Shown in pieces: positions 10,906 through 54,368 of a stretch of DNA of 64,000 bases. The stretch's first letter is position 1, and each line of letters begins with the position of its first letter. Source of the stretch: Eubacteriales bacterium (GTDB lineage: Bacteria; Bacillota; Clostridia; Oscillospirales; CAG-272); the NCBI GenBank assembly GCA_045580085.1, contig JAZNND010000049.1, positions 1,144 to 65,143 of the forward strand, written 5' to 3'. Under the pieces are notes generated by a model. It worked only from the letters and a program-made list of their open reading frames with translations. It made no database searches and was not told the DNA's origin. The translations under genes were made by a program, and so were the position numbers.

Positions 10906-10925
10906 CGCTCGATTCTCCTCGAATA

Positions 10926-12971: not shown

Positions 12972-13895
12972 TCAAATTTTCTGCGCCAAAAGTGCGAACC
13001 AATCGCGCTCTTCCATTTCGCGCACAAGGCGGAAACCATAGCGGGGCAGAGCTTCCTTGACTGCGTCGACGCGCATGCCGACGATGCCGGAAAGAATCAC
13101 CTTGGCGTCTTTCTTCATGTAGGCACCGAGATCGGGCAAAAGTTTTAGAATAATGTCAGCTACGATGTTGGCAAGAACAAAATCATAGCCGCCGCCTTGG
13201 GTATCGACGTTGGATAAGAGGTCGGACACATCGCAGTATACGTTGTCAGCTCCGTCGGCGGCGATGTTTTCCCTTGCCACGCGCACAGCCATCGGATCGA
13301 TATCATAAGCATAACATTCTTTTGCGCCGAGTTTCGAAGCGCAAAGAGCCAAAATGCCGCTTCCCGTTCCCACATCCAAGACTCTTTCTCCGCCGTGAAT
13401 CTCTTCTTGCATCATTTCCATGACGAGTCTGGTCGTTTCATGTGTGCCGGTGCCGAATGCCATTCCGGGATCCATGCGAATGATGCTTTCGCCTTCCTTG
13501 GGGGTATATTCTTCCCATGCGGGGACGATGGTTACTTTACCAAGCGGAATGGGATGATAGTATTTTTTCCAAACATGCGCCCAATCCTCCTCGCACATGC
13601 TCTCGGTTTCGATCTCGGCATGCAATCCGAGCGTATCGATGCGCTCACGCAAAAAGGCGATCGCTTCGGGAATGCTTCTTTCTGCCGAAAGAAATACAGA
13701 AACAACAGCGCGGGTTTTGTCGGCGTTTAAAATCGATTCGTCGATCAAGGCACCGTACATGCCGTCGGTGGTAATATCACTGTAATCCTCAATCATAATC
13801 CCGTTATCGATCATGCTCATCACAGCGGCAAGGGTTTCCGCTTCGTCGTGCTTTCCGACCAGTGAAAGCTTGATCCATTCGTTTGCCTGACTCAT
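12972..13895 (-). CDS. prmA: ribosomal protein L11 methyltransferase
   Basis: 307 aa. WKKYYHPIPLG, MDPGMAFGTGTHETT and the SAM motif VLDVGTGSGILA are PrmA hallmarks. Confidence 0.9.
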   Translation of the reverse strand: MSQANEWIKLSLVGKHDEAETLAAVMSMIDNGIMIEDYSDITTDGMYGALIDESILNADKTRAVVSVFLSAERSIPEAIAFLRERIDTLGLHAEIETESMCEEDWAHVWKKYYHPIPLGKVTIVPAWEEYTPKEGESIIRMDPGMAFGTGTHETTRLVMEMMQEEIHGGERVLDVGTGSGILALCASKLGAKECYAYDIDPMAVRVARENIAADGADNVYCDVSDLLSNVDTQGGGYDFVLANIVADIILKLLPDLGAYMKKDAKVILSGIVGMRVDAVKEALPRYGFRLVREMEERDWFALLAQKI

Positions 13896-28147: not shown

Positions 28148-28251
28148 GTTTTCCGAGAGTGGTTGATTCGAAAATATGAAAATAAGACTTATGTGAATGT
28201 GCATCACATTTGCATCAAGGGTATCATATAAAACTCAAAAGGAGAAAAGAC

Positions 28252-28338
28252 ATGAAAAAAATTATTTCGGGCTTTCTGGCAGTTTTAATGGCGGTTATGG
28301 TTTTTCCGTTTGCCGCATTGCCGTTAGACGCTTCTGCG
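28252..28338 (+). other. Sec signal peptide of giant protein (no lipobox Cys)
   Basis: KK n-region, hydrophobic core, and an ASA-A cleavage-type site at residues 27-30. Confidence 0.7.
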
Positions 28339-39580: not shown

Positions 39581-41080
39581 ATGGGCATCATAATTAATGA
39601 TGATTTTGAGATATATACCAAACACCTATGGCGGCAAGGTATATCCGAGAGTGCCGGTGAGGCACAAGCGCGTTCCTATATTCGCCGTTACGCGAATACG
39701 CAGGTGACCGCCATTTTTTTCAATGTGAACGCACAGCTTTCCAGCTCTCCCAGTGAGGTTTTGGAAACCGTCGGTGAAAAATATCTCAAAAAAGAAGTGG
39801 ACGGTATTCCCGTTGATTTTTCCGATACATTGCATAAAGGATGGTATGATCAGTTTGTTCGAAATGGCCTTGATCTGTATGCCATCTTTGTCGACGAATG
39901 CCGCGCGTGCGGTATCTCTCCGTGGCTCTCTTTCCGTCTCAATGATACACATGATAATTTGGAACCCACGGGCGGTTTGCGTCAAAGCAATTTTACTCAT
40001 ACGGCGCGCCGCGATGGCAGAAGCCGTTGCCGTCACAGAGAAGTAACGGGTTATTACGATAACTGCCTTGATTATGCCGTGCCTGCCGTACGCGAGCTTT
40101 TTTTGGCGTATGTAAGAGAACAGTTAGACCGTTATGATGTTGACGGAATTGAAATTGATTTTCTGCGAGAGCCTTTTCTTTTCTCGCCGGGGTATGAGGA
40201 TGAGGGAAGAGAAATCGTAAAAGAAATGATAAAGAAGGTTCGCTCTTATGCAGATGCCGCGGCAGAGATGTACGGGCACCCTGTTCAGCTTTCCGTGCGC
40301 ACCTTCCGAGATCCCGAAAGTGATTATTACGCAGGTATTGACACGCCAACTTTAGCGCGAGAGGGGATTGTCGATGCCGTTACGGTGTCCTGCCGTTGGG
40401 AAAGTACCGACAGCGATATACCGCTTGCACATTGGCGCGCGATTTTGCCCGCCGAGACGCGCTTATCGCTTTCTTCCGAAATGAATTACCGTGCTCCGAA
40501 CAGAGAAGATGCACGCTGTACCCCTGAGCTTTTGCGCGGACTTGCCAATTATGCACTTTCGGCAGGCGCGGATGATTTTTATATGTTCAATTACTCTTAT
40601 CTTGCGCTTCCCACAGGGGAAGGTCTGCCGGAATGCCCTAGTGCTGAGCCTTTCTTGGCACTTTTAAATGAGGTCGGCAGTCTTGACACATTGCGTGCGC
40701 TCCCGCGCCGCCATGTGCTTACCTATAACGATCTGACCGCATACGGTATGCGCACGCGCCCCACCCTCCCTCTTGAGGTCACGCGCCGCCATGAAAAGTC
40801 TGCCGTGCGTCTCTTTACAGGTGAACCGCGCGAAAAAATGTATTTGCTCCTCGATATCGATACCGATGCGGAAAATCTTTCGGTCTATCTCAATGCCGCG
40901 CCTGTTCGATATCTTGGCAAGGCAAAGGTGGAAGAGGCATACGCCTCTTGTGCGCTTCATGTTTTTGAGGCAGACTGCCTTCGCCCCGTTACGCAGATGC
41001 TTGAAGTCGGTGTCAAAGACGAGGAAAGCTATTTGCTGAAATATGCTGAGCTTTGTACCGAACGTCCCACGCTTGTCTAA
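39581..41080 (+). CDS. hypothetical protein, possibly TIM-barrel glycoside-hydrolase-like
   Basis: 499-aa ORF with good coding appearance. DVDGIEIDFLREPFLF and LSFRLNDTHD resemble strand-end motifs of GH-like TIM barrels. The family is not recognised with confidence. Confidence 0.5.
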   Translation: MGIIINDDFEIYTKHLWRQGISESAGEAQARSYIRRYANTQVTAIFFNVNAQLSSSPSEVLETVGEKYLKKEVDGIPVDFSDTLHKGWYDQFVRNGLDLYAIFVDECRACGISPWLSFRLNDTHDNLEPTGGLRQSNFTHTARRDGRSRCRHREVTGYYDNCLDYAVPAVRELFLAYVREQLDRYDVDGIEIDFLREPFLFSPGYEDEGREIVKEMIKKVRSYADAAAEMYGHPVQLSVRTFRDPESDYYAGIDTPTLAREGIVDAVTVSCRWESTDSDIPLAHWRAILPAETRLSLSSEMNYRAPNREDARCTPELLRGLANYALSAGADDFYMFNYSYLALPTGEGLPECPSAEPFLALLNEVGSLDTLRALPRRHVLTYNDLTAYGMRTRPTLPLEVTRRHEKSAVRLFTGEPREKMYLLLDIDTDAENLSVYLNAAPVRYLGKAKVEEAYASCALHVFEADCLRPVTQMLEVGVKDEESYLLKYAELCTERPTLV

Positions 41081-41105
41081 AATTTATACTATACAGGAGA
41101 CTCTT

Positions 41106-41837
41106 ATGGAATTTAATGTTAATCATCCCATTCTGTTTGTGTTTGCCGCCGTGATCATCATAGCGGTGCTCGGTCAGTCTTTCTATTTTCTTTTCCGCGC
41201 ATGTATGCGCGCGAAGGAACTTGGCATGGATAAAGCCAAAATCAGAAAAACCATAACCTCTGCCGCCATATTTACCGTTGCGCCGGCTGTTTCTATTTTG
41301 GTTGGCGTTCTGGTTCTTTCCAAAAAGCTCGGTGTTGCGCTTCCTTGGCTCAGACTTTCCATCATCGGTTCTCTCAGCTATGAAACGGTTGCCGCTGAGA
41401 CAACCATCGAACAACTTGGTGTGGAAGGCACCGAAGCTATCACGGCATCCGGTTTTGTTACCGTTCTTTGGGTGATGACGCTTGGTATTATTCTCGGACT
41501 GGCACTGGTTCCCGTGCTTGCCAAACGCATTCAAAAGGGAATCAAAAAAATGGAAAAAAGGGATAACCGTTGGGGCGAGATCTTCAATAACGCCATGTTT
41601 CTCGGCATGATTTCCGCTTTTCTCGGCTATGTTTTTTGCGATGTTTCCACCATCTTCTCAGGCGACGCGTCGGGGCTTATTCCCGTATGCGTTATGGCCG
41701 TGTCGGCGTTGATCATGGTCGTGTGCGGTTTGCTCTCCAAAAAGCTCGGTGCCCGCTGGCTGACGGATTATGCCTTGCCCTTCAGCCTCATTGGCGGCAT
41801 GGCAGCTGCTATTCCGATTACGGCGTGGTTGATTTAA
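41106..41837 (+). CDS. polytopic membrane protein of unknown function (DUF5058-like by recollection)
   Basis: I chose the start at the ATG at 41106 (AGGAG 8 nt upstream), since the ORF-track start overlaps the previous gene. The 243-aa product is hydrophobic. Confidence 0.55.
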   Translation: MEFNVNHPILFVFAAVIIIAVLGQSFYFLFRACMRAKELGMDKAKIRKTITSAAIFTVAPAVSILVGVLVLSKKLGVALPWLRLSIIGSLSYETVAAETTIEQLGVEGTEAITASGFVTVLWVMTLGIILGLALVPVLAKRIQKGIKKMEKRDNRWGEIFNNAMFLGMISAFLGYVFCDVSTIFSGDASGLIPVCVMAVSALIMVVCGLLSKKLGARWLTDYALPFSLIGGMAAAIPITAWLI

Positions 41838-41859
41838 AGATAAGGGAGGAAAAGTAATC

Positions 41860-42564
41860 ATGGATGAAAAGAATATGGAAATAAAAGCGGAAAAATCTTC
41901 GGTCGAAAGCACCCCCTATTTGGAAAGCGTACATCGGTCCGGCCGTGCTTGGGGTTTTGTAATCTTGGCTTTGATTTTGGCTTTCCCAATCGCTACTATG
42001 ATCGTTTTCGGTGCTGCACCCGAATGGGAGGCGTTTTTCAGCGGTCTTGTTGCCATTCTGCCCATGTATTGGGCTGTGGGCTTGGTTGAACTTTTTACTT
42101 ATGTGCCGATGCTCGGCGCGGGAGGTGCTTACCTTTCTTTTGTAACGGGTAATATCTCTAATCTCAAGCTTCCCTGTGCCTTGGACGCCATGGAGAGAGC
42201 CAATGTAAAGGCGAGCACGGAAGAGGGGGAGATCATTTCCACCATCGCCATTGCCACTTCCAGCATTGTAACGACTTTAATTATTTGCGTTGGCGTTATT
42301 TTTATTGTACCGCTGACACCTTTGCTCAACGCTCCCATTCTTGCACCTGCTTTTGATATGATTCTGCCTGCGCTTTTTGGCGGTCTTGCGGTAGTGTTTA
42401 TCTCGAAAAATGCCAAGCTTTCGATCGCTCCCATTGTTTTGATGCTTATTCTTTTTATTTTCGTTCCCGCACTCAACGAAAGTACGGTTGGCATTATGGT
42501 TCCCGTTGGCGTGGTCTTTACCATCCTTACGGCGCGTATTCTCTATAAAAAAGGAATTATTTAA
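41860..42564 (+). CDS. polytopic membrane protein of unknown function
   Basis: 234 aa, about 6 TM segments, tightly packed between the previous membrane protein gene and the M20 peptidase gene. Confidence 0.55.
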   Translation: MDEKNMEIKAEKSSVESTPYLESVHRSGRAWGFVILALILAFPIATMIVFGAAPEWEAFFSGLVAILPMYWAVGLVELFTYVPMLGAGGAYLSFVTGNISNLKLPCALDAMERANVKASTEEGEIISTIAIATSSIVTTLIICVGVIFIVPLTPLLNAPILAPAFDMILPALFGGLAVVFISKNAKLSIAPIVLMLILFIFVPALNESTVGIMVPVGVVFTILTARILYKKGII

Positions 42565-42566
42565 AA

Positions 42567-44015
42567 ATGGAAATTTTAGTTTACATTTTAATGGCATTGG
42601 CGGTCCTTTTGTTGGCGTTTTTGGGTGTAATTATCGGAAGAGCCCTGGCGTTTCGCCCCCAAAAACAAGTTCCCATTGATGAAAGAGAGATTCACTTTGA
42701 TCAAGAGAAAAGTTTGGAAAATTTCCGAACGCTCGTGCGTTTCCCCACGATTTCGAATGCCGCCCCCGCCCTTGAGGATGACGGTGCATTTGAGGCGCTC
42801 ATTGCTGCTTTGCCTTCGCTCTATCCGAATGTATTTGCCCATTGCTCTTTTGATCGCTTGCCCGACCGCGCACTTTTGTTTCGCTTGAAAGGTAAAAAGG
42901 GTGGTGAGCCTGCCGTTTTGATGGCGCATTACGACGTAGTGCCCGTCAATGAAAAGGATTGGGAAAAGCCTCCGTTCGATGCCGTTTTGGAGAACGGAGT
43001 GATTTGGGGGCGAGGAACACTTGATACCAAGATCACCTTCCACTCGGTTCTTTTTGCCGCCGACACGCTTCTTAAAGACGGTTTTGTTCCCGAAAATGAC
43101 GTTTATTTCGCCTTTTCGGGCGGAGAAGAGGTCAACGGAAACGGTGCCAAAAATATTGTTTCCTATTTCAAAGAGAATGGTATCACGCCTGCCTTTGTGT
43201 TAGACGAGGGCGGAGCCGTTGTAGAAAATGTTTTCCCCGGTGTGAAGATGCCTTGCGGTATGATCGGTATTGCCGAAAAGGGAATGATGAATGTCCGCTA
43301 CAGCACATCGTCGAACGGCGGTCACGCCTCGGCACCCAAACCTCATACGCCGGTCGGACTTTTATCCCGCGCTTGTACACGCATCGAAAACCACCCTTTC
43401 CCTTATCATATTTCAAAACCCGCTTACGCTATGTTCGATACGCTTGGCAGGCATTCAAGCTTTCTTTACCGCGTCATTTTTGCCAACCTCTGGTGTTTTT
43501 CTCCCTTGTTGAATAAAATTTGCAAAGCGGGAGGCGGAGAACTCAATGCTCTTTTGCGCACTACGGTTGCCTTCACGCAGATGCAAGGCAGTTCCGCCGC
43601 CAATGTAATTCCGCCTGAGGCTTCTATGATCTCCAATATCCGTTTGAATCCCTGCGATAATGCCGAGGAAGCTCTTGCATATCTTCGCAAGACCGTTTCG
43701 GATGAAAATGTTAAGATTGAGGCACTTTACGCCATGGATCCGAGTCCTGTCTCACGTATTGATGTTGAAGGGTGGCAAAAGGTTTCCGCCGCTGTCGCTT
43801 CCACGTGGAAAGGCTCGATCGTTTCTCCATACTTGATGATGCAATGCTCCGACAGCCGTCATTATGCTGAAATATCCGATCGTGTATACCGCTTTTCGGC
43901 AATGGATCTTACCAAAGAAGAACGTGCCACCATTCACGGCAACAACGAGCGCATCCGCGTAGAAACGGCGCACCGTGCAGTTGAATTTTATATCCGTTTG
44001 CTCGGCTCTTGCTGA
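42567..44015 (+). CDS. M20 family metallopeptidase with N-terminal TM anchor
   Basis: 482 aa. Has an N-terminal hydrophobic helix, then MAHYDVVPV, WGRGTLDTK and GGEEVNG, the metal-binding blocks of the M20/M25/M40 family. Confidence 0.85.
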   Translation: MEILVYILMALAVLLLAFLGVIIGRALAFRPQKQVPIDEREIHFDQEKSLENFRTLVRFPTISNAAPALEDDGAFEALIAALPSLYPNVFAHCSFDRLPDRALLFRLKGKKGGEPAVLMAHYDVVPVNEKDWEKPPFDAVLENGVIWGRGTLDTKITFHSVLFAADTLLKDGFVPENDVYFAFSGGEEVNGNGAKNIVSYFKENGITPAFVLDEGGAVVENVFPGVKMPCGMIGIAEKGMMNVRYSTSSNGGHASAPKPHTPVGLLSRACTRIENHPFPYHISKPAYAMFDTLGRHSSFLYRVIFANLWCFSPLLNKICKAGGGELNALLRTTVAFTQMQGSSAANVIPPEASMISNIRLNPCDNAEEALAYLRKTVSDENVKIEALYAMDPSPVSRIDVEGWQKVSAAVASTWKGSIVSPYLMMQCSDSRHYAEISDRVYRFSAMDLTKEERATIHGNNERIRVETAHRAVEFYIRLLGSC

Positions 44016-44042
44016 GTTGCTATAACAAAAGGAGGGCTTAGG

Positions 44043-44948
44043 ATGTATCTTGAAAGCTTTCGTCTTCCGTCGCGTGACGATGAGGACGCTTATGTTCTTT
44101 CTTATCCCGCAAAGCTTGAAATGCGTTGCTACAGCGATAACGTATATCCTTTTAAGCTGTTTGCGATGAGAGATATGCCGCAGCTCTCTTTTGTGACACC
44201 CATTACGCTTTTTTACGGCGGAAACGGTTCCGGAAAAAGCACGCTTCTTAATATCATTGCCGAAAAGTTGGGGCTTGCTCGGGAAGCCGCTTTCAATCGC
44301 ACTCCGTTTTACGAGGATTACTTGACTCTCTGTTCTTACCGATTGGCGCGCGGTATCCAAACTTTGCCCAAGGGGAGCCGTATCATCACGAGCGATGACG
44401 TATTTGACTATCTGCTTGATATTCGCGCCGTCAACGAAGGAATTGATCGCAAGAGAGAAGACCTTTTTCGCGAATATGATGCCTTGACGGAGCTGAAAGA
44501 CGAGCCTGTGCTCCTAACTTCATTAGATGAGCACGAGTCTTTTAAAAGAATGCTTGAAGCAAAGCGCAAAACAAAATCCGCTTTTGCAACACCGCGTCTC
44601 AAAAGAGAATACCGCACACGCTCTAACGGTGAGAGTGCGTTTTTCTACTTCACCGAGCATATCAAAGAGGGGGCACTCTATCTGCTTGATGAGCCTGAAA
44701 ACAGTCTTTCCGTAGAACTTCAAAAATCGCTTGCGGCTTTCGTGGAGGATTCCGCCCGCTTTTATCGCTGTCAGTTCGTCATTTCCACCCATTCACCTTT
44801 TCTTCTTTCTATGAAGGGGGCGCGCGTATATGATCTTGACGCGCTGCCCGTTGCAGAAAAGGAATGGACGGCACTTCCGAATGTTCGTCTTTTTTATGAT
44901 TTTTTTGAAGCGCACCGAGCATCTTTTGAAAAAAATAAAAAAATGTGA
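44043..44948 (+). CDS. AAA/ABC-type ATPase (AAA_21-like), orphan
   Basis: 301 aa. Walker A GGNGSGKST, Walker B/D-loop LYLLDEPENSLS, and an H-loop-like STHSP. Confidence 0.7.
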   Translation: MYLESFRLPSRDDEDAYVLSYPAKLEMRCYSDNVYPFKLFAMRDMPQLSFVTPITLFYGGNGSGKSTLLNIIAEKLGLAREAAFNRTPFYEDYLTLCSYRLARGIQTLPKGSRIITSDDVFDYLLDIRAVNEGIDRKREDLFREYDALTELKDEPVLLTSLDEHESFKRMLEAKRKTKSAFATPRLKREYRTRSNGESAFFYFTEHIKEGALYLLDEPENSLSVELQKSLAAFVEDSARFYRCQFVISTHSPFLLSMKGARVYDLDALPVAEKEWTALPNVRLFYDFFEAHRASFEKNKKM

Positions 44949-44978: not shown

Positions 44979-45007
44979 TTGATTTTAGTGAGATGATGTG
45001 TTAAAAT
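44979..45007 (+). promoter_or_regulatory. sigma-A type promoter of the T-box operon (TTGATT-17-TAAAAT, TGn)
   Basis: TTGATTttagtgagatgatgtgtTAAAAT. Confidence 0.6.
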
Positions 45008-45013
45008 ATACCC

Positions 45014-45270
45014 ATCAAATGCGTTTGAGCGAAAAAGAGTAACCGTAATCTTAGTCTCAGAGAACTGTCGGTTGGTGCGAGACAGTGGCGATGGTGCGGC
45101 GAATACCTTTCGTGAGCAGTGCACCGAACGGAAACCAGTAGGCTGCAACGGGTGCTCCCGTCACAGAGCAAAAGGGTGAATGCCCTATGAGGTTCGCTTT
45201 GCGGATAAAATGAGGTGGTACCACGGGAATTTCTCGTCCTCTGCTTTTTGAAGAAGGACGGGATTTTTTT
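45014..45270 (+). promoter_or_regulatory. T-box riboswitch leader, probable Tyr (UAC) specifier
   Basis: Stem I has a K-turn (GCGA.../...CGTGAGC), an AGTA/GAA S-turn, an AGAGA bulge (45058-45062) and a TGGTGCGA distal loop (45073-45080). The specifier GAA-TAC-C is at 45101-45107. The T-box sequence AAATGAGGTGGTACCACGG is at 45208-45226, followed by the terminator. Confidence 0.85.
45235..45270 (+). terminator. T-box terminator hairpin
   Basis: CGTCCT (45235-45240) pairs with AGGACG (45255-45260) and is followed by ATTTTTTT. It competes with the antiterminator that contains the T-box sequence. Confidence 0.75.
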
Positions 45271-45373
45271 GTTCCGGCCTTCGGTGAGAAGGCGCATAAA
45301 AATTGATACAGCTATGCAATAAGCCTTCTCGAAGTGCGCAGGATGACATCTGCGCATGATGGAGGAAAATGTC

Positions 45374-46921
45374 ATGGACATGTTTGTGAAAATTGCGTTA
45401 TTGGTTGTGTTCTTTGCCGTGATGATCCTCGTCGGCTTCTATTGCAGACGAGCTGCCAAAGACGTAAACGGTTTTGTGCTCGGCGGGCGAACCGTCGGAC
45501 CGTGGCTTACGGCGTTTGCATACGGCACTTCGTATTTCTCGGCAGTTATTTTCGTCGGTTATGCAGGTCAGTTTGGTTGGAAATTCGGTATCGCGTCCAC
45601 TTGGATCGGCATCGGTAACGCGGTGATCGGTTCGCTTCTCGCTTGGGTGATCCTCGGCAGACGTACCCGTTTGATGACACAGCATCTCGGCAGTGCCACC
45701 ATGCCGGAATTTTTCGGTAAACGCTTTGGAAGCCCGGCCCTTAAGATTGCGGCGTCTGTCATTGTATTTATCTTCTTAATTCCCTATACGGCTTCGCTGT
45801 ATAACGGTCTTTCCCGTCTCTTCTCCATGGCGTTCCCCGGTATCAGTTACACGGTTTGCGTTATTATCATGGCAATTTTGACGGGTATTTACGTGGTTGC
45901 CGGCGGTTATATGGCTACTGCCGTCAATGATTTCATCCAAGGTATTATCATGCTTGGCGGTATTATTGCTGTCATCGCCGTCGTTTTGAACGGGCAGGGC
46001 GGCTTTACCGCAGCACTTGAAGGGCTTGCTTCCGTTCACGTAGAAGGCAACGCACCCGGTGCCTTCAATTCCTTCTTCGGCCCCGATCCGCTTTCTCTTC
46101 TTTTCGTCGTTATCCTTACCTCTCTGGGTACATGGGGCTTGCCTCAGATGGTGCAGAAATTTTACGCCATCAAGAGCGAAAAAGACATCAATAAAGGTAC
46201 TATTATTTCCACCCTCTTTGCAGTTGTCGTTGCCGGCGGATGCTACTTCCTCGGCGGCTTTGGCAGACTCTTTACCAATGAGCTGAATGTTACAAACGGT
46301 ATGCCCGAAGGCGGATATGATGCTATCATTCCCACCATGCTCAGTAACCTGCCCGCTGTCGTGATCGGCGTTGTGATCGTGCTTGTGCTTTCGGCATCCA
46401 TGTCGACGCTTTCGTCTCTCGTTCTCACCTCATCCTCTACCATGACGCTTGACCTCGTGCGCGGTCATATCGTCAAGAAGATGAGTGATAAGGTTCAGGT
46501 TTTGGTTATGCGCATTTTGATCGTTGTTTTCATCGCCATTTCCGCTTTCATTGCTTTGAATAAAGATAAACTCGGTTACATTGCCGATATGATGGGTATT
46601 TCTTGGGGTGCGCTGGCAGGCGCATTCCTCGCACCCTTCCTCTACAGCCTCTACTCCAAGCGCATCACCAAGGTTTCCGTATGGGTAAGCTTTGCTGTCG
46701 GTGCGGGTGTGATGGTATTCAATATGGTAGCAAGAAATATTTTCCCCGCCATTTTGCAATCCCCCATCAATTGCGGTGTTGTTGTGATGTTGCTCGGGCT
46801 TATTCTTGTTCCCATCGTCAGCCTCTTCACACCCAAGCAGAAGAAGGAAGAGGTAGATGAAATGTTTGCTTGTTATGATAAAGAGGTCGTTGTTCCGTCG
46901 AAAGAATCGTTGGGCAAATGA
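45374..46921 (+). CDS. sodium:solute symporter (SSS) family transporter
   Basis: About 515 aa, 13-14 TM segments. The N-terminal block GGRTVGPWLTAFAYGTSYFSAVIFVGYAG is typical of the SSS (PutP/PanF-like) family. The ATG at 45374 has GGAGGA 7 nt upstream. Confidence 0.85.
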   Translation: MDMFVKIALLVVFFAVMILVGFYCRRAAKDVNGFVLGGRTVGPWLTAFAYGTSYFSAVIFVGYAGQFGWKFGIASTWIGIGNAVIGSLLAWVILGRRTRLMTQHLGSATMPEFFGKRFGSPALKIAASVIVFIFLIPYTASLYNGLSRLFSMAFPGISYTVCVIIMAILTGIYVVAGGYMATAVNDFIQGIIMLGGIIAVIAVVLNGQGGFTAALEGLASVHVEGNAPGAFNSFFGPDPLSLLFVVILTSLGTWGLPQMVQKFYAIKSEKDINKGTIISTLFAVVVAGGCYFLGGFGRLFTNELNVTNGMPEGGYDAIIPTMLSNLPAVVIGVVIVLVLSASMSTLSSLVLTSSSTMTLDLVRGHIVKKMSDKVQVLVMRILIVVFIAISAFIALNKDKLGYIADMMGISWGALAGAFLAPFLYSLYSKRITKVSVWVSFAVGAGVMVFNMVARNIFPAILQSPINCGVVVMLLGLILVPIVSLFTPKQKKEEVDEMFACYDKEVVVPSKESLGK

Positions 46922-46950
46922 TCTAAGAATCCCCCGAAAGGAAAAATATT

Positions 46951-48588
46951 ATGCCAATTACGGAAGTTCTCCAAAAAAATGCGGATTTTTATCCCGCCGA
47001 TGTCAGTTTGGTTGAGATCAATCCCAAGCTTGAAAACCAAACACGCATGACATGGCGCGAGTATTCGCTGATCGAAGCCAATCCCAATGAGGCGTATCGC
47101 AATGAGATCACATGGAGTGAGTTCAATCGCCGTGCCAACCGTTTTGCCAATTTTCTTTTGACGCGCGGCATCAAAAAAGGCGATAAGGTTGCCATTCTCT
47201 TGATGAACAGCCTTGAATGGCTCCCCATCTATTTCGGTGTACTCAAAACGGGTGCGCTTGCCGTGCCCCTCAATTATCGCTATGCCGCGGATGAGATCAA
47301 ATATTGCCTTGAGCTTGCGGATGCCGATGTTTTGGTGTTTGGTCCCGAGTTTACAGGACGTGTGGAGGAAATCTGCACACGTGTCGCACGCGTAAAAATG
47401 TGGTTATATGTCGGTGAAGATTGCCCCACTTTTGCGGAGAGCTATGATAATCTTGTTTCCTATTGTTCCTCGAAAAGTCCTCGCATCAAGCTGACCGATG
47501 ACGATGATGCCGCTATTTACTTTTCTTCGGGTACCACCGGTTTCCCGAAAGCCATCATCCATAAGCACAGAAGCTTAATGCATGCCGCCATGACTGAGCA
47601 AAATCACCATGGTCAAACCAAGGACGATGTGTTCCTTTGTATCCCCCCTCTCTATCATACCGGTGCCAAGATGCACTGGTTCGGCAGCTTTTTGGTGGGC
47701 GGCAAAGCGGTTATTTTAAAGGGCATTAAACCCGAATGGATTCTCCGTGCCGTTTCTGAAGAGAAGTGTTCCATCGTTTGGTTGCTTGTTCCGTGGGCGC
47801 AGGATATTCTTGATGCCATTGATCGCGGAGAGATCTCTCTTGCGGATTATGATCTGTCTCAGTGGCGCTTGATGCACATCGGTGCGCAACCCGTTCCTCC
47901 CAGTTTGATCAAACGCTGGAAGGCGATATTCCCTCACCACGCCTATGACACCAATTACGGTCTTTCCGAGTCCATCGGTCCCGGTTGTGTACATCTTGGC
48001 GTAGAAAACGAACACAAGGTTGGCGCGATCGGCAAAGCCGGTTTTGGTTGGGCGACCGATATTGTGGACGAAAAAGGCAAAACTGTTCCTAAAGGTGAAG
48101 TCGGTGAGCTTGCCGTCAAAGGCCCCGGCGTAATGACTGCCTATTACAAGGATGAAAAAGCAACAGCTGAAGTATTGCACGGCGAATGGCTTCATACGGG
48201 TGATATGGCGTTTGAAGATGAGGACGGTTTTATTTTCTTGGTAGACCGCAAAAAGGATGTCATCATTTCGGGCGGTGAAAATCTTTATCCCGTGCAGATC
48301 GAAAACTTCATCCGCAAGCATGATGCCATAAGCGATGTTGCCGTGATCGGGCTTCCCGATGCGCGCCTTGGTGAAATTGCCGCCGCCATCGTTCAGTTGA
48401 AGGAAGGTTATACGCTGACGGAAGAGCAGTTCAATGATTTTTGCATGGAGCTTCCTCGCTATAAGCGTCCTCGCCGCGTGATCTTTGCGGACGTTCCCCG
48501 TAATCCCACGGGTAAGATCGAAAAGCCCAAGCTTCGCAAGATCTATTGCGGTGAAAGCGTAGTGGCACAGCAAAATGAAATTAAATGA
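46951..48588 (+). CDS. AMP-dependent acyl-CoA synthetase/ligase (ANL superfamily)
   Basis: 545 aa. AMP-binding motif YFSSGTTGFPKAI, then YHTGA, GELAVKGPGVMTAYY, TGDMAF.DEDGF...VDRKKD and PRNPTGKI. Confidence 0.85.
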   Translation: MPITEVLQKNADFYPADVSLVEINPKLENQTRMTWREYSLIEANPNEAYRNEITWSEFNRRANRFANFLLTRGIKKGDKVAILLMNSLEWLPIYFGVLKTGALAVPLNYRYAADEIKYCLELADADVLVFGPEFTGRVEEICTRVARVKMWLYVGEDCPTFAESYDNLVSYCSSKSPRIKLTDDDDAAIYFSSGTTGFPKAIIHKHRSLMHAAMTEQNHHGQTKDDVFLCIPPLYHTGAKMHWFGSFLVGGKAVILKGIKPEWILRAVSEEKCSIVWLLVPWAQDILDAIDRGEISLADYDLSQWRLMHIGAQPVPPSLIKRWKAIFPHHAYDTNYGLSESIGPGCVHLGVENEHKVGAIGKAGFGWATDIVDEKGKTVPKGEVGELAVKGPGVMTAYYKDEKATAEVLHGEWLHTGDMAFEDEDGFIFLVDRKKDVIISGGENLYPVQIENFIRKHDAISDVAVIGLPDARLGEIAAAIVQLKEGYTLTEEQFNDFCMELPRYKRPRRVIFADVPRNPTGKIEKPKLRKIYCGESVVAQQNEIK

Positions 48589-48622
48589 TGTATTTAAACT
48601 TTGACAAAAAGGAAATAAGTAT

Positions 48623-50359
48623 ATGAAAAAACTTTTACTCGGAAATGCCGCCGTTGCGCGCGGTGCGTACGAAGCGGGAGTGAGAGTGGTCTCCTCTTAT
48701 CCCGGAACTCCTTCTACGGAGATCACCGAAGAGATCGTTAAATTTGAAGAGGTATACGCCGAATGGGCACCCAACGAAAAGGTCGCCGCAGAGGTTGCCA
48801 TCGGTGCTTCTATCGGCGGCGCGCGTGCCATGAGCTGTATGAAGCACGTCGGTCTCAATGTGATGGCGGATCCCGTATTCACCGTCAGCTATACCGGCGT
48901 GGGCGGAGGATTGGTTCTTTGCGTAGCGGATGATCCCGGCATGCACTCTTCTCAAAACGAGCAGGATTCCCGCCACTACGCCAAGGCGTCTAAGATCATG
49001 ATGCTTGAGCCTGCAGATTCTTCCGAGTGTAAAGAATTTACCAAAATCGCCTTTGCTCTTTCCGAACAGTTTGATACCCCTGCCTTTATTCGCCTTTCCA
49101 CTCGCGTATCCCACTCTCAAAGCTTGGTTGCGCTCGGTGAAAGAGAAGAGAAGGATTTGCTTCCCTATGAAAAGAACATCGGCAAGTATGTCATGATGCC
49201 CGGTAATGCCATCAAACGTCACGTCGTTGTGGAGGACCGTATCAAAGCCCTTACCGCATTCGCGGAAGAGACGGAACTAAATGCGGTAGAAAACAACGGT
49301 TCCCGCATTGGTGTTATCACCGCGGGTATCTCTTACATGTACGCGAAAGAGGCTTTGGGCGAAAAAGCAGATTACTTAAAGCTCGGCATGGTATATCCGC
49401 TTCCCGTGGAAAAAATAAAGGCTTTTGCCGCCTCTCATGATGAAATTTACGTGATTGAGGAATTGGATCCTTTCATTGAGGAACATTGCAAAGCACTCGG
49501 ACTGCAGGTAAAAGGTAAAGAACTCTTTACACTTTTGGGTGAATACACCCCTGCTATGATCAAAAAGGCGGTGCTTGGCGAAAGTGCACCCGATGTATTG
49601 CGTGCCGAAGAGCCCATTCCTGTTCGTCCTCCCGTGATGTGCGCGGGATGTCCGCACAGAGGTACCTTCTATGTCTTAAAGAAGCTTGGTTGTGTTGTTT
49701 CGGGTGATATCGGATGTTACACGCTCGGTGCAACCATTCCGCTTCAATCTGTGGATACCACCATTTGCATGGGTGCTTCTGTCAGTGCCGCACTCGGCAT
49801 GGCGAAGGCGAGAGGGATGGAGTTTAATAAAAAGCTGGTCTCCGTGATCGGCGACTCTACCTTTATGCATTCCGGTATTACGGGCCTTGTGGATATTGTT
49901 TATAACAAAGGTGCCAATACTGTGATCATTCTTGACAACTCCATCACGGGTATGACAGGGCATCAAAATAACCCTACCACAGGTTATACCATTCGCGGTG
50001 AAGAAACCAAGCAGGTCAATCTTGTGGATCTTTGCCACTCTGTAGGCGTAGCTCATGTGGTGGTTGCCGATCCTTTTGATATCAAGAATTTTGAAAAGGT
50101 TGTAAAAACCGAACTTGAGAGAGAAGAACCCTCTGTTATTATCGCACAGCGTCCTTGCGCGCTGTTGAAAACCGTCAAATACACCGGTCACTGTGTTATC
50201 ACTGACAAATGCAAGAATTGCAAAATGTGCATGAAGCTTGGCTGTCCTGCCATCACGGTTAAAAACGGTAAAGTCATGATTGATCCTACGCAGTGCAACG
50301 GATGCGGACTTTGCGTGAACGTTTGCCCCTTCGGCGCGATTGAAAAGGAGGAAAACTGA
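48623..50359 (+). CDS. iorA: indolepyruvate (arylpyruvate) ferredoxin oxidoreductase subunit alpha
   Basis: 578 aa. LLGNAAVARGAYEAGV..SSYPGTPSTEI N-terminus, a TPP-binding region GDIGCYTLG...GDSTFMHSG, and a C-terminal 2x[4Fe-4S] ferredoxin (CKNCKMC...CP; CNGCGLCVNVCP). Confidence 0.9.
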   Translation: MKKLLLGNAAVARGAYEAGVRVVSSYPGTPSTEITEEIVKFEEVYAEWAPNEKVAAEVAIGASIGGARAMSCMKHVGLNVMADPVFTVSYTGVGGGLVLCVADDPGMHSSQNEQDSRHYAKASKIMMLEPADSSECKEFTKIAFALSEQFDTPAFIRLSTRVSHSQSLVALGEREEKDLLPYEKNIGKYVMMPGNAIKRHVVVEDRIKALTAFAEETELNAVENNGSRIGVITAGISYMYAKEALGEKADYLKLGMVYPLPVEKIKAFAASHDEIYVIEELDPFIEEHCKALGLQVKGKELFTLLGEYTPAMIKKAVLGESAPDVLRAEEPIPVRPPVMCAGCPHRGTFYVLKKLGCVVSGDIGCYTLGATIPLQSVDTTICMGASVSAALGMAKARGMEFNKKLVSVIGDSTFMHSGITGLVDIVYNKGANTVIILDNSITGMTGHQNNPTTGYTIRGEETKQVNLVDLCHSVGVAHVVVADPFDIKNFEKVVKTELEREEPSVIIAQRPCALLKTVKYTGHCVITDKCKNCKMCMKLGCPAITVKNGKVMIDPTQCNGCGLCVNVCPFGAIEKEEN

Positions 50360-50360
50360 T

Positions 50361-50927
50361 ATGACAAAGAATATCATGATCGTCGGTGTAGGCGGCCAAG
50401 GCACCCTCCTTGCCAGCCGTATTCTCGGCAATACCGTTATCAGCGAAGGCTATGACGTAAAAGTCTCCGAGGTGCATGGCATGAGCCAGCGCGGTGGAAG
50501 TGTTGTTACTTATGTGAAATATGGCGAAAAGGTCTACTCTCCCATCATCGGTGAGGGCGAGGCGGATGTTATTCTTGCGTTTGAGCTTCTCGAGGCTTAC
50601 AGAGCCCTGCCTTATCTCAAAAAAGGCGGAAAGATCATCGTCAATACTCAAGAAATCGATCCCATGCCTGTCATCACGGGTGTGGCGGCGTATCCCGAAA
50701 AGATTGCAGAAAAGATTGCCGCCGCCGCGGATCTTGTAACGGTTGACGCGCTTTCCCTTGCTAAAGAGGCGGGTACCATCAAGGCTGTCAATGTTGTTTT
50801 GATCGGCGTTATGGCAAAAGCAAGCGACATTTCTTATGAAAGATGGGTGGAAACACTCAAAACAACTGTTCCCGCAAAATTCCTTGAAGTCAATCTCAAG
50901 GCATTTGATCTTGGATATAATCTTTAA
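50361..50927 (+). CDS. iorB: indolepyruvate ferredoxin oxidoreductase subunit beta
   Basis: 188 aa from the ATG at 50361 (AAAGGAGG upstream). IVGVGGQGTLLASRILG...VKVSEVHGMSQRGGSV is the IorB/gamma-subunit signature. Confidence 0.9.
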   Translation: MTKNIMIVGVGGQGTLLASRILGNTVISEGYDVKVSEVHGMSQRGGSVVTYVKYGEKVYSPIIGEGEADVILAFELLEAYRALPYLKKGGKIIVNTQEIDPMPVITGVAAYPEKIAEKIAAAADLVTVDALSLAKEAGTIKAVNVVLIGVMAKASDISYERWVETLKTTVPAKFLEVNLKAFDLGYNL

Positions 50928-50944
50928 TAAAGAGGTGAAAAAAC

Positions 50945-52249
50945 ATGGCTTTCTGGCAGAAAGAAATTGAAACCATGCCCCGCCCCGCGCTCGAAAAACT
51001 GCAGAGCGAACGCCTCGTGTGGCAGGTAAGAAGAATGTATGAAAAGGTGGAGCTTTTTCGCCGCCGTATGGATGAATTGGGGTTGAAGCCCGAAGATATT
51101 CATGGCATTGAAGATCTTCACAAGCTTCCGTTCTCCTACAAACAGGACCTCCGTGATTATTACCCCTATGGGCTTTTTGCAACTCCCATGAAGGATATCC
51201 GCCGCGTGCATGCCTCCTCGGGTACCACCGGAAAGCAGATTGTTGTCGGTTATACCGATAATGATCTTGAAATGTGGGCGGATTGCTTTGCCCGTATGCT
51301 GATCGCCACGGGCGGTGATGAAAACTCCTTCGTTCAGGTTTCTTACGGTCTTGGACTTTTTACAGGCGGCTTCGGTGCGCATGACGGTGCTGTTCGCATT
51401 GGCGCAACGGCTATTCCGATCTCTGCCGGAAACACCCAACGCCAGATTCAAACGATGATCGATTTCGGTGCTACCGTTCTTTGTTGCACGCCTTCCTATG
51501 CGCTTTATCTCGGTGAGACAATTGCCGAAATGGGCGTGAAGGATCAGCTGAAGCTCAAAGCAGGTATTTTTGGCGCTGAGCCTTGGACCGAAGAGATGCG
51601 TGCGCAGATCGAGGAAAAGCTCGGTTTAAAAGCTTACGATATTTACGGCCTTTCCGAGATCATGGGCCCGGGTGTATCTTATGAATGCGACGGGCAGTGC
51701 GGTATGCATGTTTGCGAGGACAACTTTATCCCCGAGATCATTGATCCCGATACAGGCGAAGTGCTTCCCGCAGGTGCGCAGGGTGAGCTTGTCTTTACCA
51801 CGATTACCAAGGAAGGCTTCCCCCTCATCCGTTACCGCACGCGTGATATTTGTTCTCTCAATTACGAGGTTTGTAAGTGCGGAAGAACCCATGTCCGCAT
51901 GAATAAGCCGCAGGGCAGAACCGACGATATGCTGATCATCCGCGGTGTCAATGTATTCCCCTCTCAGATCGAAGAGGTTCTTCTTAAAGTCGGCGACGGT
52001 GTTACGCCCAACTATCAGATCGTGGTGGACCGTGAAAACAATACCGACACCTTCCTTGTTAATGTAGAGATGAGCGAAAGCCTCTTCTCCGACGGCATCA
52101 AGGCGATTGAAAAGCTTGAAAAGAACATCACCGAAATGCTTAAGAGTATGCTTGGTATTGCTCCCAAAGTCAAGCTCGTCAATCCCAAGAGCATCGAGCG
52201 CAGTGAGGGCAAAGCAAAGCGTGTCATCGATAAGCGTAAGCTGAAATAA
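50945..52249 (+). CDS. paaK: phenylacetate--CoA ligase family protein
   Basis: 434 aa. [35 protein letters not shown] and RYRTRD are PaaK-type blocks. Confidence 0.9.
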
Positions 52250-52261
52250 GGAGGAAAAAAT

Positions 52262-52687
52262 ATGTTTATCAAACAGCTTTCTGTTTTTGTGGAAAATTCC
52301 GCCGGCAGTCTGCAACATGTTGTAGATGCTCTCAGTGAAAATCATATCAACATCCGCGCGCTTTCTTTGGCGGATACTTCGGAGTTTGGCATTCTTCGTT
52401 TAATTGTTGACAATGAAGAAAAGGCTCTTGCGGCGCTTCGCGGCATCGGTGTGGTCTCAAAGGTCAGCGACGTGATCGCCGTTGCTATGGATGACTGCGC
52501 GGGCGGTCTTGCCAATGTTACTCGCTTGATTTCCGAAGCGGGGATCAATATGGAATACAGCTATGCTTTCCTTGGCAGAAAAGAGGGCAGAGCACTGCTT
52601 GTCATCAAGGCAACCGATGAAGCACTTGCCGAAAAAGTGCTCCGTGAAAACGGCGTAGCACTTGCTACGGAAGAGGATCTTAAATAA
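52262..52687 (+). CDS. ACT domain-containing protein
   Basis: 141 aa. Tandem ACT-like beta-alpha-beta-beta-alpha-beta pattern (LSVFVENSAGSLQHVVDALSENHINI...). This gene commonly follows ior-paaK in anaerobes. Confidence 0.8.
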   Translation: MFIKQLSVFVENSAGSLQHVVDALSENHINIRALSLADTSEFGILRLIVDNEEKALAALRGIGVVSKVSDVIAVAMDDCAGGLANVTRLISEAGINMEYSYAFLGRKEGRALLVIKATDEALAEKVLRENGVALATEEDLK

Positions 52688-53526
52688 TGAAAATCCAGTA
52701 TCTTGGCACTGCTGCCGCAGAGGGGACTCCGTCCCCTTTTTGCGAGTGTGATGTGTGCGAATATGCGCGAGCGCATGGCGGAAAAAACATTCGCACGCGC
52801 ACGCAGGCTTTGCTGGACGGCAGACTGTTGATCGATTTCTCTCCCGACACTTTTTTGCACACCTTGCGGGATGGCAGTCGGCTTTGCTATCTTGACGGCT
52901 GTCTGATCACCCATCCGCATAGCGATCATTTCGCTCCCAAGGAGCTGTTTTGGTGCGTCAAAAGCGTCGGTATGATGAAAACGCCGAAGAGCTTTCATAT
53001 TTACGGTTCCGATGACGTAATGGATCAGTTGCGCGCCGAAAAATATGATGTTGACGTGATCGCGCTTGAAAAAGAGGGCGGTGTTACCCTGCATCCCTTG
53101 AAGGTTTTTGAGCCGTCAGAGGTGGCAGGTTACCGTGTGACGCCCTTGAAAGCCGACCATCCCACGCGTGAGCCCTTTCTCTATATCATCGAGAAAGGCG
53201 GAAAAAGCATGCTTTACGCTACCGATACCGGTATGCTTCCCGAGGTAACATGGGAGTATCTTGCTAAGATTGATACGGTTTTTGATCTCGTTTCGTACGA
53301 TGCGACGTATCTTTTGCGTGAAGCGGATAACCGCTATCACATGAATTTAAAGGGTAATGCCGAAATGCGCGAACGGCTCGCTTCCATGGGCAGAGTGAGT
53401 AAGGACACTAAGCACGTCTTGCTTCATTTTTCCCATAAAGGTACCCTTTCGCATGACGCGCTTGAACCCATCGCCCGAGAAAGAGGGTTTATCCCTGCCT
53501 ACGACGGGCTTGAAATTGAGTTTTGA
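52687..53526 (+). CDS. MBL-fold metallo-hydrolase (PhnP-like)
   Basis: 279 aa. An ITHPHSDHF (HxHxDH) motif and a Cys-rich N-terminal knuckle (CECDVC). The start overlaps the ACT gene stop by 1 nt. Confidence 0.8.
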   Translation: MKIQYLGTAAAEGTPSPFCECDVCEYARAHGGKNIRTRTQALLDGRLLIDFSPDTFLHTLRDGSRLCYLDGCLITHPHSDHFAPKELFWCVKSVGMMKTPKSFHIYGSDDVMDQLRAEKYDVDVIALEKEGGVTLHPLKVFEPSEVAGYRVTPLKADHPTREPFLYIIEKGGKSMLYATDTGMLPEVTWEYLAKIDTVFDLVSYDATYLLREADNRYHMNLKGNAEMRERLASMGRVSKDTKHVLLHFSHKGTLSHDALEPIARERGFIPAYDGLEIEF

Positions 53527-53534: not shown

Positions 53535-53560
53535 GGGGCTGTCTTTCGTGAGACAGCCCC
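53535..53560. terminator. bidirectional terminator (operon end / sigG end)
   Basis: ggggctgtct (53535-53544) pairs perfectly with agacagcccc (53551-53560). An A-run precedes it and GGCGTTTTATT follows. Confidence 0.7.
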
Positions 53561-53597: not shown

Positions 53598-54368
53598 TTA
53601 AAGCATCTTTTTAACCTTCTCAAGCGCGCCTTTTTCAAGGCGGGAGACTTGTGCTTGTGAGATGCCGATTTCTTCGGCAATCTCCATTTGCGTTTTGCCT
53701 CGGTAGAATCGCATAAGAAGAATATGCCGTTCCCGTTCCCCGAGCCGTCGCATGGCTTCTTTTAAGGAAATGTCTTCGATCCAGTCCTCGTCCGTTTCCC
53801 CGCCTTCCAATTGATCGATGACAAAAACAGAATCCTCTCCGTCGTTGTATACCGAATCATAGAGAGACACGGGTTCTACGATGGCTTCCAAGGCGTGAGA
53901 AACCGCCTTTTTTTCTTCTCCGAGCAGAGTCGCAATCTCCTCCACCGTAGGCTCGGTGCCTTTAGCGTGCGTTAAAGCATCGCGTGCTTGCAGAGCTCTG
54001 TAGGCAAGATCTCTGACCGAACGGGAAATGCGGATGGCGTTATTGTCACGCAAATAGCGTTTGACTTCACCGATGATCATGGGTACCGCGTAGGTTGAAA
54101 ATTGTACGTCAAGATCGGTGTTGAAATTATCCACCGCTTTGATAAGCCCGATGCACCCCACTTGAAAAAGATCGTCAAGGCTTTCCTTTCTGCCTGTGAA
54201 TCGCTGAATGATGCTGAGCACCAGCCTAAGATTGCCGTATATGAGCTTGTCTCTTGCCTCCTTGTCTCCCTCCTTGACGCGCAAGAGAAGCGCGCGCTTT
54301 TCTTCACTCGTTAAAATCGGAAGTTTTGCGGTGTTAACACCGCAAATTTCCACCTTGTTATTGTACAT
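53598..54368 (-). CDS. sigG: RNA polymerase sporulation sigma factor SigG
   Basis: 256 aa. MYNNKVEICGVNTAKLPILTSEEKRALL...GNLRLVLSIIQRF...DDLFQVGCIGLIKAVDNF...STYAVPMIIGEVKRYLRDNN closely parallels B. subtilis SigG as I recall it. The VEICGV.T.KLP N-terminus favours SigG over SigF. Confidence 0.85.
   Translation of the reverse strand: MYNNKVEICGVNTAKLPILTSEEKRALLLRVKEGDKEARDKLIYGNLRLVLSIIQRFTGRKESLDDLFQVGCIGLIKAVDNFNTDLDVQFSTYAVPMIIGEVKRYLRDNNAIRISRSVRDLAYRALQARDALTHAKGTEPTVEEIATLLGEEKKAVSHALEAIVEPVSLYDSVYNDGEDSVFVIDQLEGGETDEDWIEDISLKEAMRRLGERERHILLMRFYRGKTQMEIAEEIGISQAQVSRLEKGALEKVKKML

Follow-up and report, generated by a model that had tools for sequence, protein, structure and literature searches.

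The leader of the tyrS gene in Bacillus subtilis is said, after the work of Grundy and Henkin, to be the founding example of a tyrosine-specific T-box. In the Bacillus cereus group, tyrosine T-boxes head genes for the synthesis of tyrosine, for phenylalanine hydroxylase and for transporters of the NhaC family (PMC2494555). Here we describe a tyrosine-type T-box leader in a 64,000-nucleotide stretch of an Eubacteriales bacterium genome (GenBank assembly GCA_045580085.1, contig JAZNND010000049.1, positions 1,144 to 65,143 of the forward strand; the whole stretch is called the window), where it heads an operon of seven genes that encode, in this order, an SSS-family symporter, an ANL-class acyl-coenzyme A (CoA) ligase, IorA, IorB, a PaaK-type ligase, an ACT-domain-pair protein and an MBL-fold hydrolase. 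The RNA is a typical T-box; its cargo is without a precedent that we could find, and is biologically informative. Indolepyruvate oxidoreductase (IOR), PaaK, acyl-CoA ligases and SSS carriers are not among the T-box cargo named in PMC2494555 and in the supplement text of PMC3766115, and the latter contains no ior or paaK entry. A search for literature linking a T-box with indolepyruvate oxidoreductase or phenylacetate-CoA ligase found none, and Vitreschak 2008 (PMC2271356) might mention one.

The enzymes of the operon have described relatives of their own. Methanococcus maripaludis possesses an IOR-dependent route from aryl acids to aromatic amino acids, shown genetically (Porat 2004, as cited in PMC4162585), and rumen cultures and bacteria make phenylalanine from phenylacetate by carboxylation (Allison, as cited in PMC7356843); our own literature search on reductive carboxylation returned no match. 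Many anaerobes of the gut and rumen carry IorAB-PaaK clusters, and annotation routinely assigns these to the degradation of aromatic amino acids. Whether such bacterial clusters run oxidatively or reductively is a point raised explicitly by a 2026 paper, according to which an IOR may be biosynthetic when it is paired with an AMP-forming arylacetate-CoA ligase, because ligases of this type favour thioester synthesis (PMC13285125, Figure S11). The characterised catabolic route from tyrosine to 4-hydroxyphenylacetate employs an oxidoreductase together with a phosphotransacylase and a kinase (PMC13285125). In the Hpd system of Clostridium scatologenes these are the HpdDEFG oxidoreductase, the HpdJ phosphotransacylase and the HpdK kinase, and this catabolic route, which growth on tyrosine induces, gains ATP by way of an acyl-phosphate (PMC13285125).

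We propose that the operon in the window rebuilds tyrosine from a scavenged aryl acid. This salvage model, taken as a whole and inferred from regulation and gene content, has in our estimate a probability of roughly 0.6. An earlier note on the window, made by a model from the letters alone, had proposed much the same, describing a promoter, a complete T-box leader of tyrosine type, seven tightly packed genes and a closing terminator, and arguing from the T-box that the operon runs anabolically in the service of the aromatic amino acids. The RNA part of that description is the firmest. The leader is almost certainly an ordinary, conserved, transcription-attenuating T-box riboswitch specific for tRNA-Tyr. 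The covariance-model search that the earlier note had suggested was run, and the leader yielded the sole gathering-level Rfam match in the window, covering the full T-box model (Table 1). All the leader motifs that the note had named lie where it had placed them.

The leader belongs to a conserved family. A consensus fold of 30 related leaders comprises stem I, stem II, a IIA/B region, an extra hairpin, stem III and the antiterminator, and compensatory changes are found in 38 of its 51 pairs, including pairs of stem I. The segment GGUGGUA is unchanged throughout these leaders, and every aligned leader has a terminator followed by a run of U. In the window, the segment CUCGUCCUCU is common to the 5' arm of the terminator and to the antiterminator, and hence the two folds are mutually exclusive; the terminator has a folding energy of -20.6 kcal/mol versus -8.6 kcal/mol for the competing antiterminator. 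No tRNA gene was found within the window. As judged from these features, the leader would respond to uncharged tRNA-Tyr, whose anticodon GUA would pair with the specifier UAC and whose uncharged 3' end, ACCA, would pair with the UGGU bulge of the T-box sequence, a pairing that would also fit discriminator base A. Binding of the tRNA would stabilise the antiterminator, RNA polymerase would then pass the terminator (45232-45270), and the seven genes would be transcribed as a single unit.

Which amino acid the leader senses needed a test of its own, because the Rfam consensus register puts ACC, a threonine codon, in the codon columns. The manual assignment foreseen in the earlier note was therefore made by comparing leaders, and it gave UAC (Tyr), as that note had held. 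The 3' half of the specifier loop in the window is GAAUACCUUUCG, and the 32 other tyrosine-type leaders carry a loop of the form GAA-UAC-A, or GAA-N-UAC-A with one extra base, directly 5' of the lower helix. UAC is unchanged in the 28 aligned tyrosine-type leaders, five further leaders were read outside the alignment, and UAC thus stands at the canonical place in 33 leaders, the window included. The leaders with the extra base (L058, L064, L069 and L080, where L numbers denote the loci compared) retain UAC-A beside the helix, so that, counted from the lower helix, the triplet in all tyrosine-type leaders is always UAC plus one base. In L070, a leader with the same specifier loop controls the tyrosyl-tRNA synthetase gene tyrS, which calibrates the tyrosine reading. 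This tyrS, with its own tyrosine T-box, lies at 15870-17510 of L070 directly 3' of an ANL-SSS-IorAB-PaaK-ACT cluster, and the match between the loops suggests that the transporter leaders may have arisen by duplication of a tyrS leader.

The genes behind the leader form one compact unit, as the earlier note had it. The intergenic gaps are 29, 34, 1, 17 and 12 nucleotides, with one further overlap of 1 nucleotide, so that no gap exceeds 34 nucleotides and two junctions overlap or abut, and the operon closes at 53535 with an 11-base-pair hairpin. The promoter in front of the leader stands less well. The hexamers that the earlier note had picked out are present, with 9 of 12 consensus matches and the TG of an extended -10, but sites of this kind are at chance level (12 found versus 11.2 expected in 10 kb), and the call rests on position. 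The -10 box ends 8 nucleotides 5' of the leader, and a -10-like box is likewise placed in several orthologous leaders for which upstream sequence is at hand.

Both IorA and IorB score above the equivalog cut-offs of the indolepyruvate oxidoreductase families. IorA has POR_N, TPP_enzyme_C and Fer4 domains, with a C-terminal domain for two [4Fe-4S] clusters; the start of IorB was moved from 50340 to the ATG at 50361, which lies 1 nucleotide past the IorA stop and is served by an AAGGAGG ribosome-binding site. The PaaK-type ligase reaches 537.7 bits against TIGR02155, under the equivalog cut-off of 646.3, which makes it a member of the family and not a certified PaaK. For the ANL ligase the best family is PRK06187 (422.6 bits, under the cut-off of 476), and its nearest solved structures (FadD13, FadD5, feruloyl-CoA synthetase and 4-coumarate-CoA ligase) are generic relatives that give no clue to the substrate. 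The same holds for the SSS symporter, for which a search of solved structures returned only generic relatives without a substrate clue, and which falls below all the named-family cut-offs compared (PutP 208.8 versus 515.5, PanF 139.8 versus 328, ActP 36.9 versus 1099). Its start was moved from 45356 to 45374, where GGAGGA stands 7 nucleotides upstream, in agreement with an orthologue of 515 residues. The symporter has orthologues that are about 80% identical across many metagenome-assembled genomes (MAGs) of Clostridia, and at least 597 matches in species-level genomes.

The last two genes differ in how widely they are shared. The gene for the ACT-pair protein stands 3' of PaaK in most related loci, and its product is a probable small-molecule-binding regulatory subunit. 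Apart from the window, the gene for the MBL-fold hydrolase, coupled in translation to the ACT gene through TAATG, was seen only in the syntenic contig L081; behind ACT in the other loci compared, none was found. Family scans of the operon's genes revealed no phosphotransacylase, no acyl kinase and no ADP-forming ligase, and neither aromatic biosynthesis genes nor an aminotransferase were found among the scanned open reading frames flanking the operon.

We compared two sets of loci, 80 species-level loci collected with the transporter as query and 80 metagenome loci collected with IorA. Leaders were located with the motif GTGGNAYCNCG and then with an nhmmer profile; the motif missed variants with UGGUAAC, which the profile recovered and which score under the Rfam gathering score (81.6 bits in L068, for instance). 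A tyrosine leader lies 5' of SSS or of ANL-SSS in 26 of the 80 species-level loci. Those loci are labelled Acutalibacteraceae, Oscillospiraceae, Ruminococcus, Monoglobus, Christensenella, Eubacterium and unclassified Clostridia, and they come from ruminant, rabbit, mouse and human gut. The downstream genes are arranged as SSS-ANL-IorAB-PaaK-ACT, whole or in part; as ANL-SSS, with the ligase directly behind the T-box (L022); or as SSS alone. The closest relative, L081 (GCA_054291565.1), has synteny identical to that of the window operon. In three contigs from human-gut metagenomes (L140, L143 and L145), a tyrosine T-box precedes ANL-SSS-IorA-IorB-PaaK-ACT and then a class I aminotransferase, which, judged by its family and place, is presumably the missing last step of the proposed route.

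A second specifier was found on the same genes. In L068 (a Lawsonibacter MAG, 4891-5167, minus strand; 81.6 bits versus a gathering score of 93, E 4.6e-18, full model) and in L108 (6069-6352, plus strand), a phenylalanine T-box with the loop GAA-AU-UUC-A, that is, the specifier UUC followed by A, and with the variant T-box sequence UGGUAAC precedes a TrpR-related gene of the YerC/YecD type and then IorA-IorB-PaaK-ACT. Divergent from this operon in L068 (5342-11469) lie ANL, a class I aminotransferase (PRK06836, above its cut-off), a pyruvate kinase and SSS. In 20 of 59 evaluable loci, spread over three phyla, an ANL orthologue and SSS are neighbours on one strand, in either gene order, with Treponema, Selenomonadaceae, Lachnospiraceae and Ruminococcus among the carriers; of 35 evaluable IorA loci, 23 contain an ANL orthologue. 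Because these associations and the tyrosine and phenylalanine leaders recur, the four functions form a recurrent module that has recruited two different aromatic specifiers. The survey of Clostridia that the earlier note had recommended thus found both tyrosine and phenylalanine T-boxes on ior-paaK modules.

In the proposed salvage, the SSS symporter would import 4-hydroxyphenylacetate, and perhaps other arylacetates; the ANL ligase, the PaaK-type ligase or both would form the CoA thioester, converting ATP to AMP; IorAB would carboxylate the thioester reductively, with reduced ferredoxin and CO2, to 4-hydroxyphenylpyruvate; and an aminotransferase would yield tyrosine. Candidate ligases and an IOR for this route are encoded in the window, and an aminotransferase gene lies in the homologous T-box operons of L140, L143 and L145 and, in L068, next to ANL. 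A candidate sensor of the end product is the ACT-pair protein. The conversion of 4-hydroxyphenylacetate through its CoA thioester and 4-hydroxyphenylpyruvate to tyrosine is the sole one-step chemistry that links this enzyme set to tyrosine. The identities of the substrates, the direction of the IOR and the role of each ligase are points that we infer.

The direction is suggested first by the regulation, because a breakdown of tyrosine that is switched on when tyrosine is lacking would make no sense. Starvation-type control, together with two AMP-forming ligases and no ATP-yielding partner in the operon, therefore favours the anabolic reading, and the importer and the aminotransferase of some relatives also fit a biosynthetic view. 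The reading is strengthened because the tyrosine T-box is tied to this gene set in many species from several families of Clostridia, because the T-box operon of L140, L143 and L145 ends in a class I aminotransferase, and because a phenylalanine (UUC) T-box precedes IorAB-PaaK-ACT in L068 and L108. The anabolic direction claimed in the earlier note is thus supported by comparative evidence, but not proven, while its extension to all three aromatic amino acids is unsupported for the window, because only tyrosine starvation is sensed there. From the way in which the specifiers are distributed, we tentatively regard SSS and ANL as a tyrosine-specific pair for uptake and activation, the part that a tyrosine T-box always controls, and IorAB-PaaK-ACT as a general arylacetate module, the part under the phenylalanine T-box.

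Several points weigh against this reading. The sequence cannot show in which direction the IOR runs, and AMP-forming ligases can work in reverse in some syntrophs. An IOR that Bacteroides thetaiotaomicron encodes beside an AMP-forming ligase was reported to have a part in making phenylacetate, in the oxidative direction (cited in PMC13285125). Both ligases score below the cut-offs of every named equivalog family, so that their substrates are guesses, and the symporter resembles PutP and PanF more than it does ActP and MctC, which carry monocarboxylates. The window operon encodes no aminotransferase. About a dozen loci, approximately half of those with a T-box, have SSS alone behind the leader, followed by its own terminator, and the close relatives L001, L002 and L030 carry the genes without a T-box, L030 having an AraC-type gene upstream. 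Many Lawsonibacter-like loci have the TrpR-related gene only. Finally, the specifier in the window is followed by C45107 in place of the usual, non-obligatory purine; C is also found after UAC in L007, L008, L140, L143 and L145, and A in the other tyrosine leaders. Within the leader family, this C variant occurs in loci from species-level genomes as well as in contigs from human-gut metagenomes.

The loci with SSS alone lead to the most serious alternative, in which the T-box primarily controls a tyrosine importer, the SSS protein carries tyrosine, and ANL, IOR and PaaK have merely been fused downstream in some lineages; the operon would then still serve the supply of tyrosine, whereas aryl acids would diffuse into the cell or take some other way in. 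The great majority of transporters under a T-box take up the cognate amino acid, and a T-box before a lone transporter gene is usual for such importers (Wels 2008, PMC2494555). PutP, which carries amino acids, would fit this view; it and PanF, not ActP or MctC, are the named SSS families nearest to the symporter. However, the adjacency of SSS and ANL in either order would be difficult to account for if SSS carried an amino acid, and in L022 as well as in L140, L143 and L145 it is ANL, not SSS, that lies directly behind the T-box. In addition, the T-box transporters listed in PMC2494555 include no tyrosine carrier of the SSS family; the tyrosine-specific ones there belong to the NhaC and NSS families. 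We consider a tyrosine importer as the primary target unlikely, but it is the alternative to be taken most seriously.

An anabolic operon could also act on something else. SSS and ANL might handle a different 4-hydroxyphenyl acid, or a non-aromatic one, from which the IOR homologue would make another 2-oxoacid, and the gain in tyrosine would be indirect. The ANL ligase indeed resembles FadD13, feruloyl-CoA synthetase and 4-coumarate-CoA ligases more than any arylacetate ligase, and some related operons have an extra Amidohydro_2 gene between SSS and ANL. Yet both IOR subunits score above the equivalog cut-offs for indolepyruvate oxidoreductase, a single carboxylation yields the 2-oxoacid of an aromatic amino acid only from an arylacetyl-CoA, and the specifiers on these modules are tyrosine and phenylalanine only, which together make another substrate improbable. 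The Amidohydro_2 (PF04909) gene was observed in the tyrosine-T-box operons of two species (L012, 11595-12410; L019, 11636-12427). The Amidohydro_2 family includes reversible decarboxylases of hydroxy-aromatic acids.

That the operon is catabolic, oxidising arylpyruvates derived from aromatic amino acids to arylacetates while its T-box is incidental or serves some other purpose, would agree with the annotation of IorAB, with its known biochemistry as an oxidative enzyme in fermenting archaea, and with the Bacteroides IOR cited above. We hold this to be very improbable. Breakdown of tyrosine induced by uncharged tRNA-Tyr would be self-defeating; the T-box link is conserved across families with strong covariation and recurs with a phenylalanine specifier; the operon spends ATP on two AMP-forming ligases and lacks every partner by which the characterised catabolic route yields ATP (PMC13285125); and it is led by a member of an importer family, not of an exporter family. 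Hardly credible, and rejected on the position of the loop, is a specifier ACC one nucleotide later in a leader that senses threonine, since, although ACC occupies the codon columns of the Rfam alignment with its 8-nucleotide consensus GAAauuca and all relatives have ACN (Thr) as the triplet in the shifted frame, the anchor on the conserved lower helix, the extra-base forms GAA-U-UAC-A and GAA-A-UAC-A and the identical loop before tyrS in L070 all speak for UAC, and the phenylalanine leaders vary from the tyrosine leaders solely at the middle codon position.

Returning to the salvage of aryl acids as the preferred reading, its value lies in what a T-box says about the genes behind it. A T-box is an unusually clear regulatory label, as it turns genes on only when a named amino acid is lacking, and tyrosine and separate phenylalanine T-boxes on these modules in many genomes are independent evidence for a biosynthetic direction. 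The T-box link also names two partners that had no assignment, the SSS carrier and the ANL ligase, and an old physiological observation becomes directly testable with defined genes. In its general form, the proposal is of riboswitch-gated salvage in gut and rumen Clostridia, in which a hitherto uncharacterised SSS subfamily would import 4-hydroxyphenylacetate, a hitherto uncharacterised ANL ligase would be the 4-hydroxyphenylacetate-CoA ligase, and, in some lineages, phenylalanine T-boxes would govern the like for phenylalanine from phenylacetate; this we advance tentatively, at slightly less than even odds. If true, gut and rumen Clostridia would make tyrosine from the fermentation end-product 4-hydroxyphenylacetate, the aryl-acid carboxylation known in rumen bacteria since the 1960s would gain an identity at the level of genes, and gut consumers of the precursors of p-cresol and phenylacetylglutamine would be identified. 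The finding points to possible consumers of phenylacetate and 4-hydroxyphenylacetate, which are precursors of host-relevant metabolites, and has a bearing on metabolic reconstructions and on predictions of auxotrophy for uncultured Clostridia.

Other regulatory elements were observed near related genes. Upstream of the TrpR-related gene that precedes IorA in L083, L085, L087, L096 and L122, within about 100 nucleotides, lies a conserved promoter-region motif, CTGTTTAC..TCAC(A/G)CTTTAATG(T/C)GTTA, which contains an inverted repeat, imperfect and placed between -35 and -10. It is a candidate operator of the TrpR-related protein, and if it is one, that protein would add a second, protein-based control of the biosynthesis type to the IOR operons. 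In L006, a T-box that we read as isoleucine (12812-13079, minus strand; AUC then A; Rfam 94.4 bits) precedes an open reading frame of 806 codons (10453-12873, minus strand) in which HTH_3, Cupin_2 and an AMP-binding ligase are fused, and which adjoins a tmRNA gene and the SSS gene with its tyrosine T-box; the fusion may be an analogue for the activation of branched-chain acids. In L142 (3318-5064), a tryptophan (UGG) T-box controls a TrpB-like (TrpB2) gene, which runs convergently towards ANL in an ANL/IorAB-PaaK-ACT/SSS cluster. The isoleucine T-boxes of L153, L156 and L161 precede an open reading frame of 1048 codons, probably ileS, and two small open reading frames; a promoter region separates them from the ANL-IOR cluster, to which they are unrelated.

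The surroundings of the operon in the window are of a different kind. Upstream, at 39581-44948 and outside the T-box unit, lies a cluster for a protein of 499 residues, a DUF5058 protein, a protein of 234 residues, an M20 peptidase and an AAA_21 ATPase, whose gene order is the same in L081. Farther away (28210-37308) is an open reading frame of 3032 codons that combines BspA-type leucine-rich repeats (LRR_5) with a MucBP domain and probably encodes a giant surface adhesin.

Table 1. Positions in the window of the T-box leader, its parts, the genes of the operon and the elements at its ends
Feature	Position	Strand	Details
Promoter-like site	44979-45007	+	-35 TTGATT 44979-44984, 17-nucleotide spacer, -10 TAAAAT 45002-45007, TG extended -10
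T-box leader	45015-45244	+	RF00230, 120.2 bits versus gathering score 93, E 4.9e-26, model 1-219 of 219
Stem I	45021-45118	+	Motif positions and alignment to the Rfam consensus
GA/K-turn halves	UGAGC 45026-45030; GUGAGC 45112-45117	+	
Specifier loop with S-turn	AAGAGUA 45035-45041 opposite GAAUACC 45101-45107	+	
Specifier codon UAC (Tyr)	45104-45106	+	3' side of the specifier loop, adjoining the lower helix
AGAGA bulge of stem I	45059-45063	+	
Distal loop of stem I, GGUUGGUGCGA	45070-45080	+	
T-box sequence, AAAUGAGGUGGUACCACGG	45208-45226	+	UGGU bulge 45216-45219
Intrinsic terminator of the leader	Stem 45232-45263; U7 45264-45270	+	
SSS symporter	45374-46921	+	515 residues; PF00474, 192 bits, residues 40-439
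ANL class I AMP-forming acyl-CoA ligase	46951-48588	+	545 residues; AMP-binding and AMP-binding_C
IorA, indolepyruvate (arylpyruvate):ferredoxin oxidoreductase alpha subunit	48623-50359	+	TIGR03336, 728.6 versus cut-off 650.9
IorB, indolepyruvate oxidoreductase beta subunit	50361-50927	+	NF005325, 288.4 versus cut-off 230; POR
PaaK-family AMP-forming ligase	50945-52249	+	AMP-binding and AMP-binding_C_2
ACT-domain-pair protein	52262-52687	+	141 residues; PF19571 ACT_8, 101.8 bits
MBL-fold metallo-hydrolase	52687-53526	+	279 residues; start overlaps the ACT stop (TAATG)
Bidirectional terminator hairpin	53535-53560	.	11-base-pair stem, 7 G-C pairs; common to the operon and convergent sigG
sigG	53598-54368	-	Convergent with the operon

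Set against the described systems, the RNA in the window is familiar. Like the B. subtilis tyrS leader, it has a stem I with K-turn, S-turn specifier loop, AG bulge and distal loop, the specifier UAC, stems II, IIA/B and III, and a UGGN bulge in an antiterminator that competes with a terminator. Unlike that leader, it has C and not a purine after the specifier, and it controls a seven-gene operon of transporter, ligases and oxidoreductase instead of an aminoacyl-tRNA synthetase. The logic of the operon is nevertheless that of other Firmicutes T-box operons (PMC2494555), in which uncharged tRNA induces genes for the supply of the cognate amino acid, often with a transporter first; what differs is the means of supply, which in the window would be a salvage by reductive carboxylation of an aryl acid and not the shikimate/prephenate route.

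On the side of the enzymes, the proposed path follows the routes of Methanococcus and rumen bacteria cited above, from an aryl acid through arylacetyl-CoA and, by IOR with reduced ferredoxin and CO2, through an arylpyruvate to the amino acid. In contrast to those routes, the window holds a bacterial operon, known from its genes alone, that combines two AMP-forming ligases with a transporter, an ACT protein and a tRNA-sensing riboswitch. It shares an IorAB/PaaK-type core with the Bacteroides cluster, which has been described without a T-box, an SSS carrier or a second, ANL-type ligase, and whose IOR has also been tied by experiment to the making of phenylacetate, in the opposite direction (PMC13285125). 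With the Hpd system, the proposed route would have in common the interconversion of 4-hydroxyphenylpyruvate and 4-hydroxyphenylacetate via a CoA thioester by a ferredoxin-dependent 2-oxoacid oxidoreductase. Unlike Hpd, however, the operon in the window is devoid of a phosphotransacylase and a kinase, employs an enzyme of the IOR type and not of the VOR type, and is wired to tyrosine starvation.

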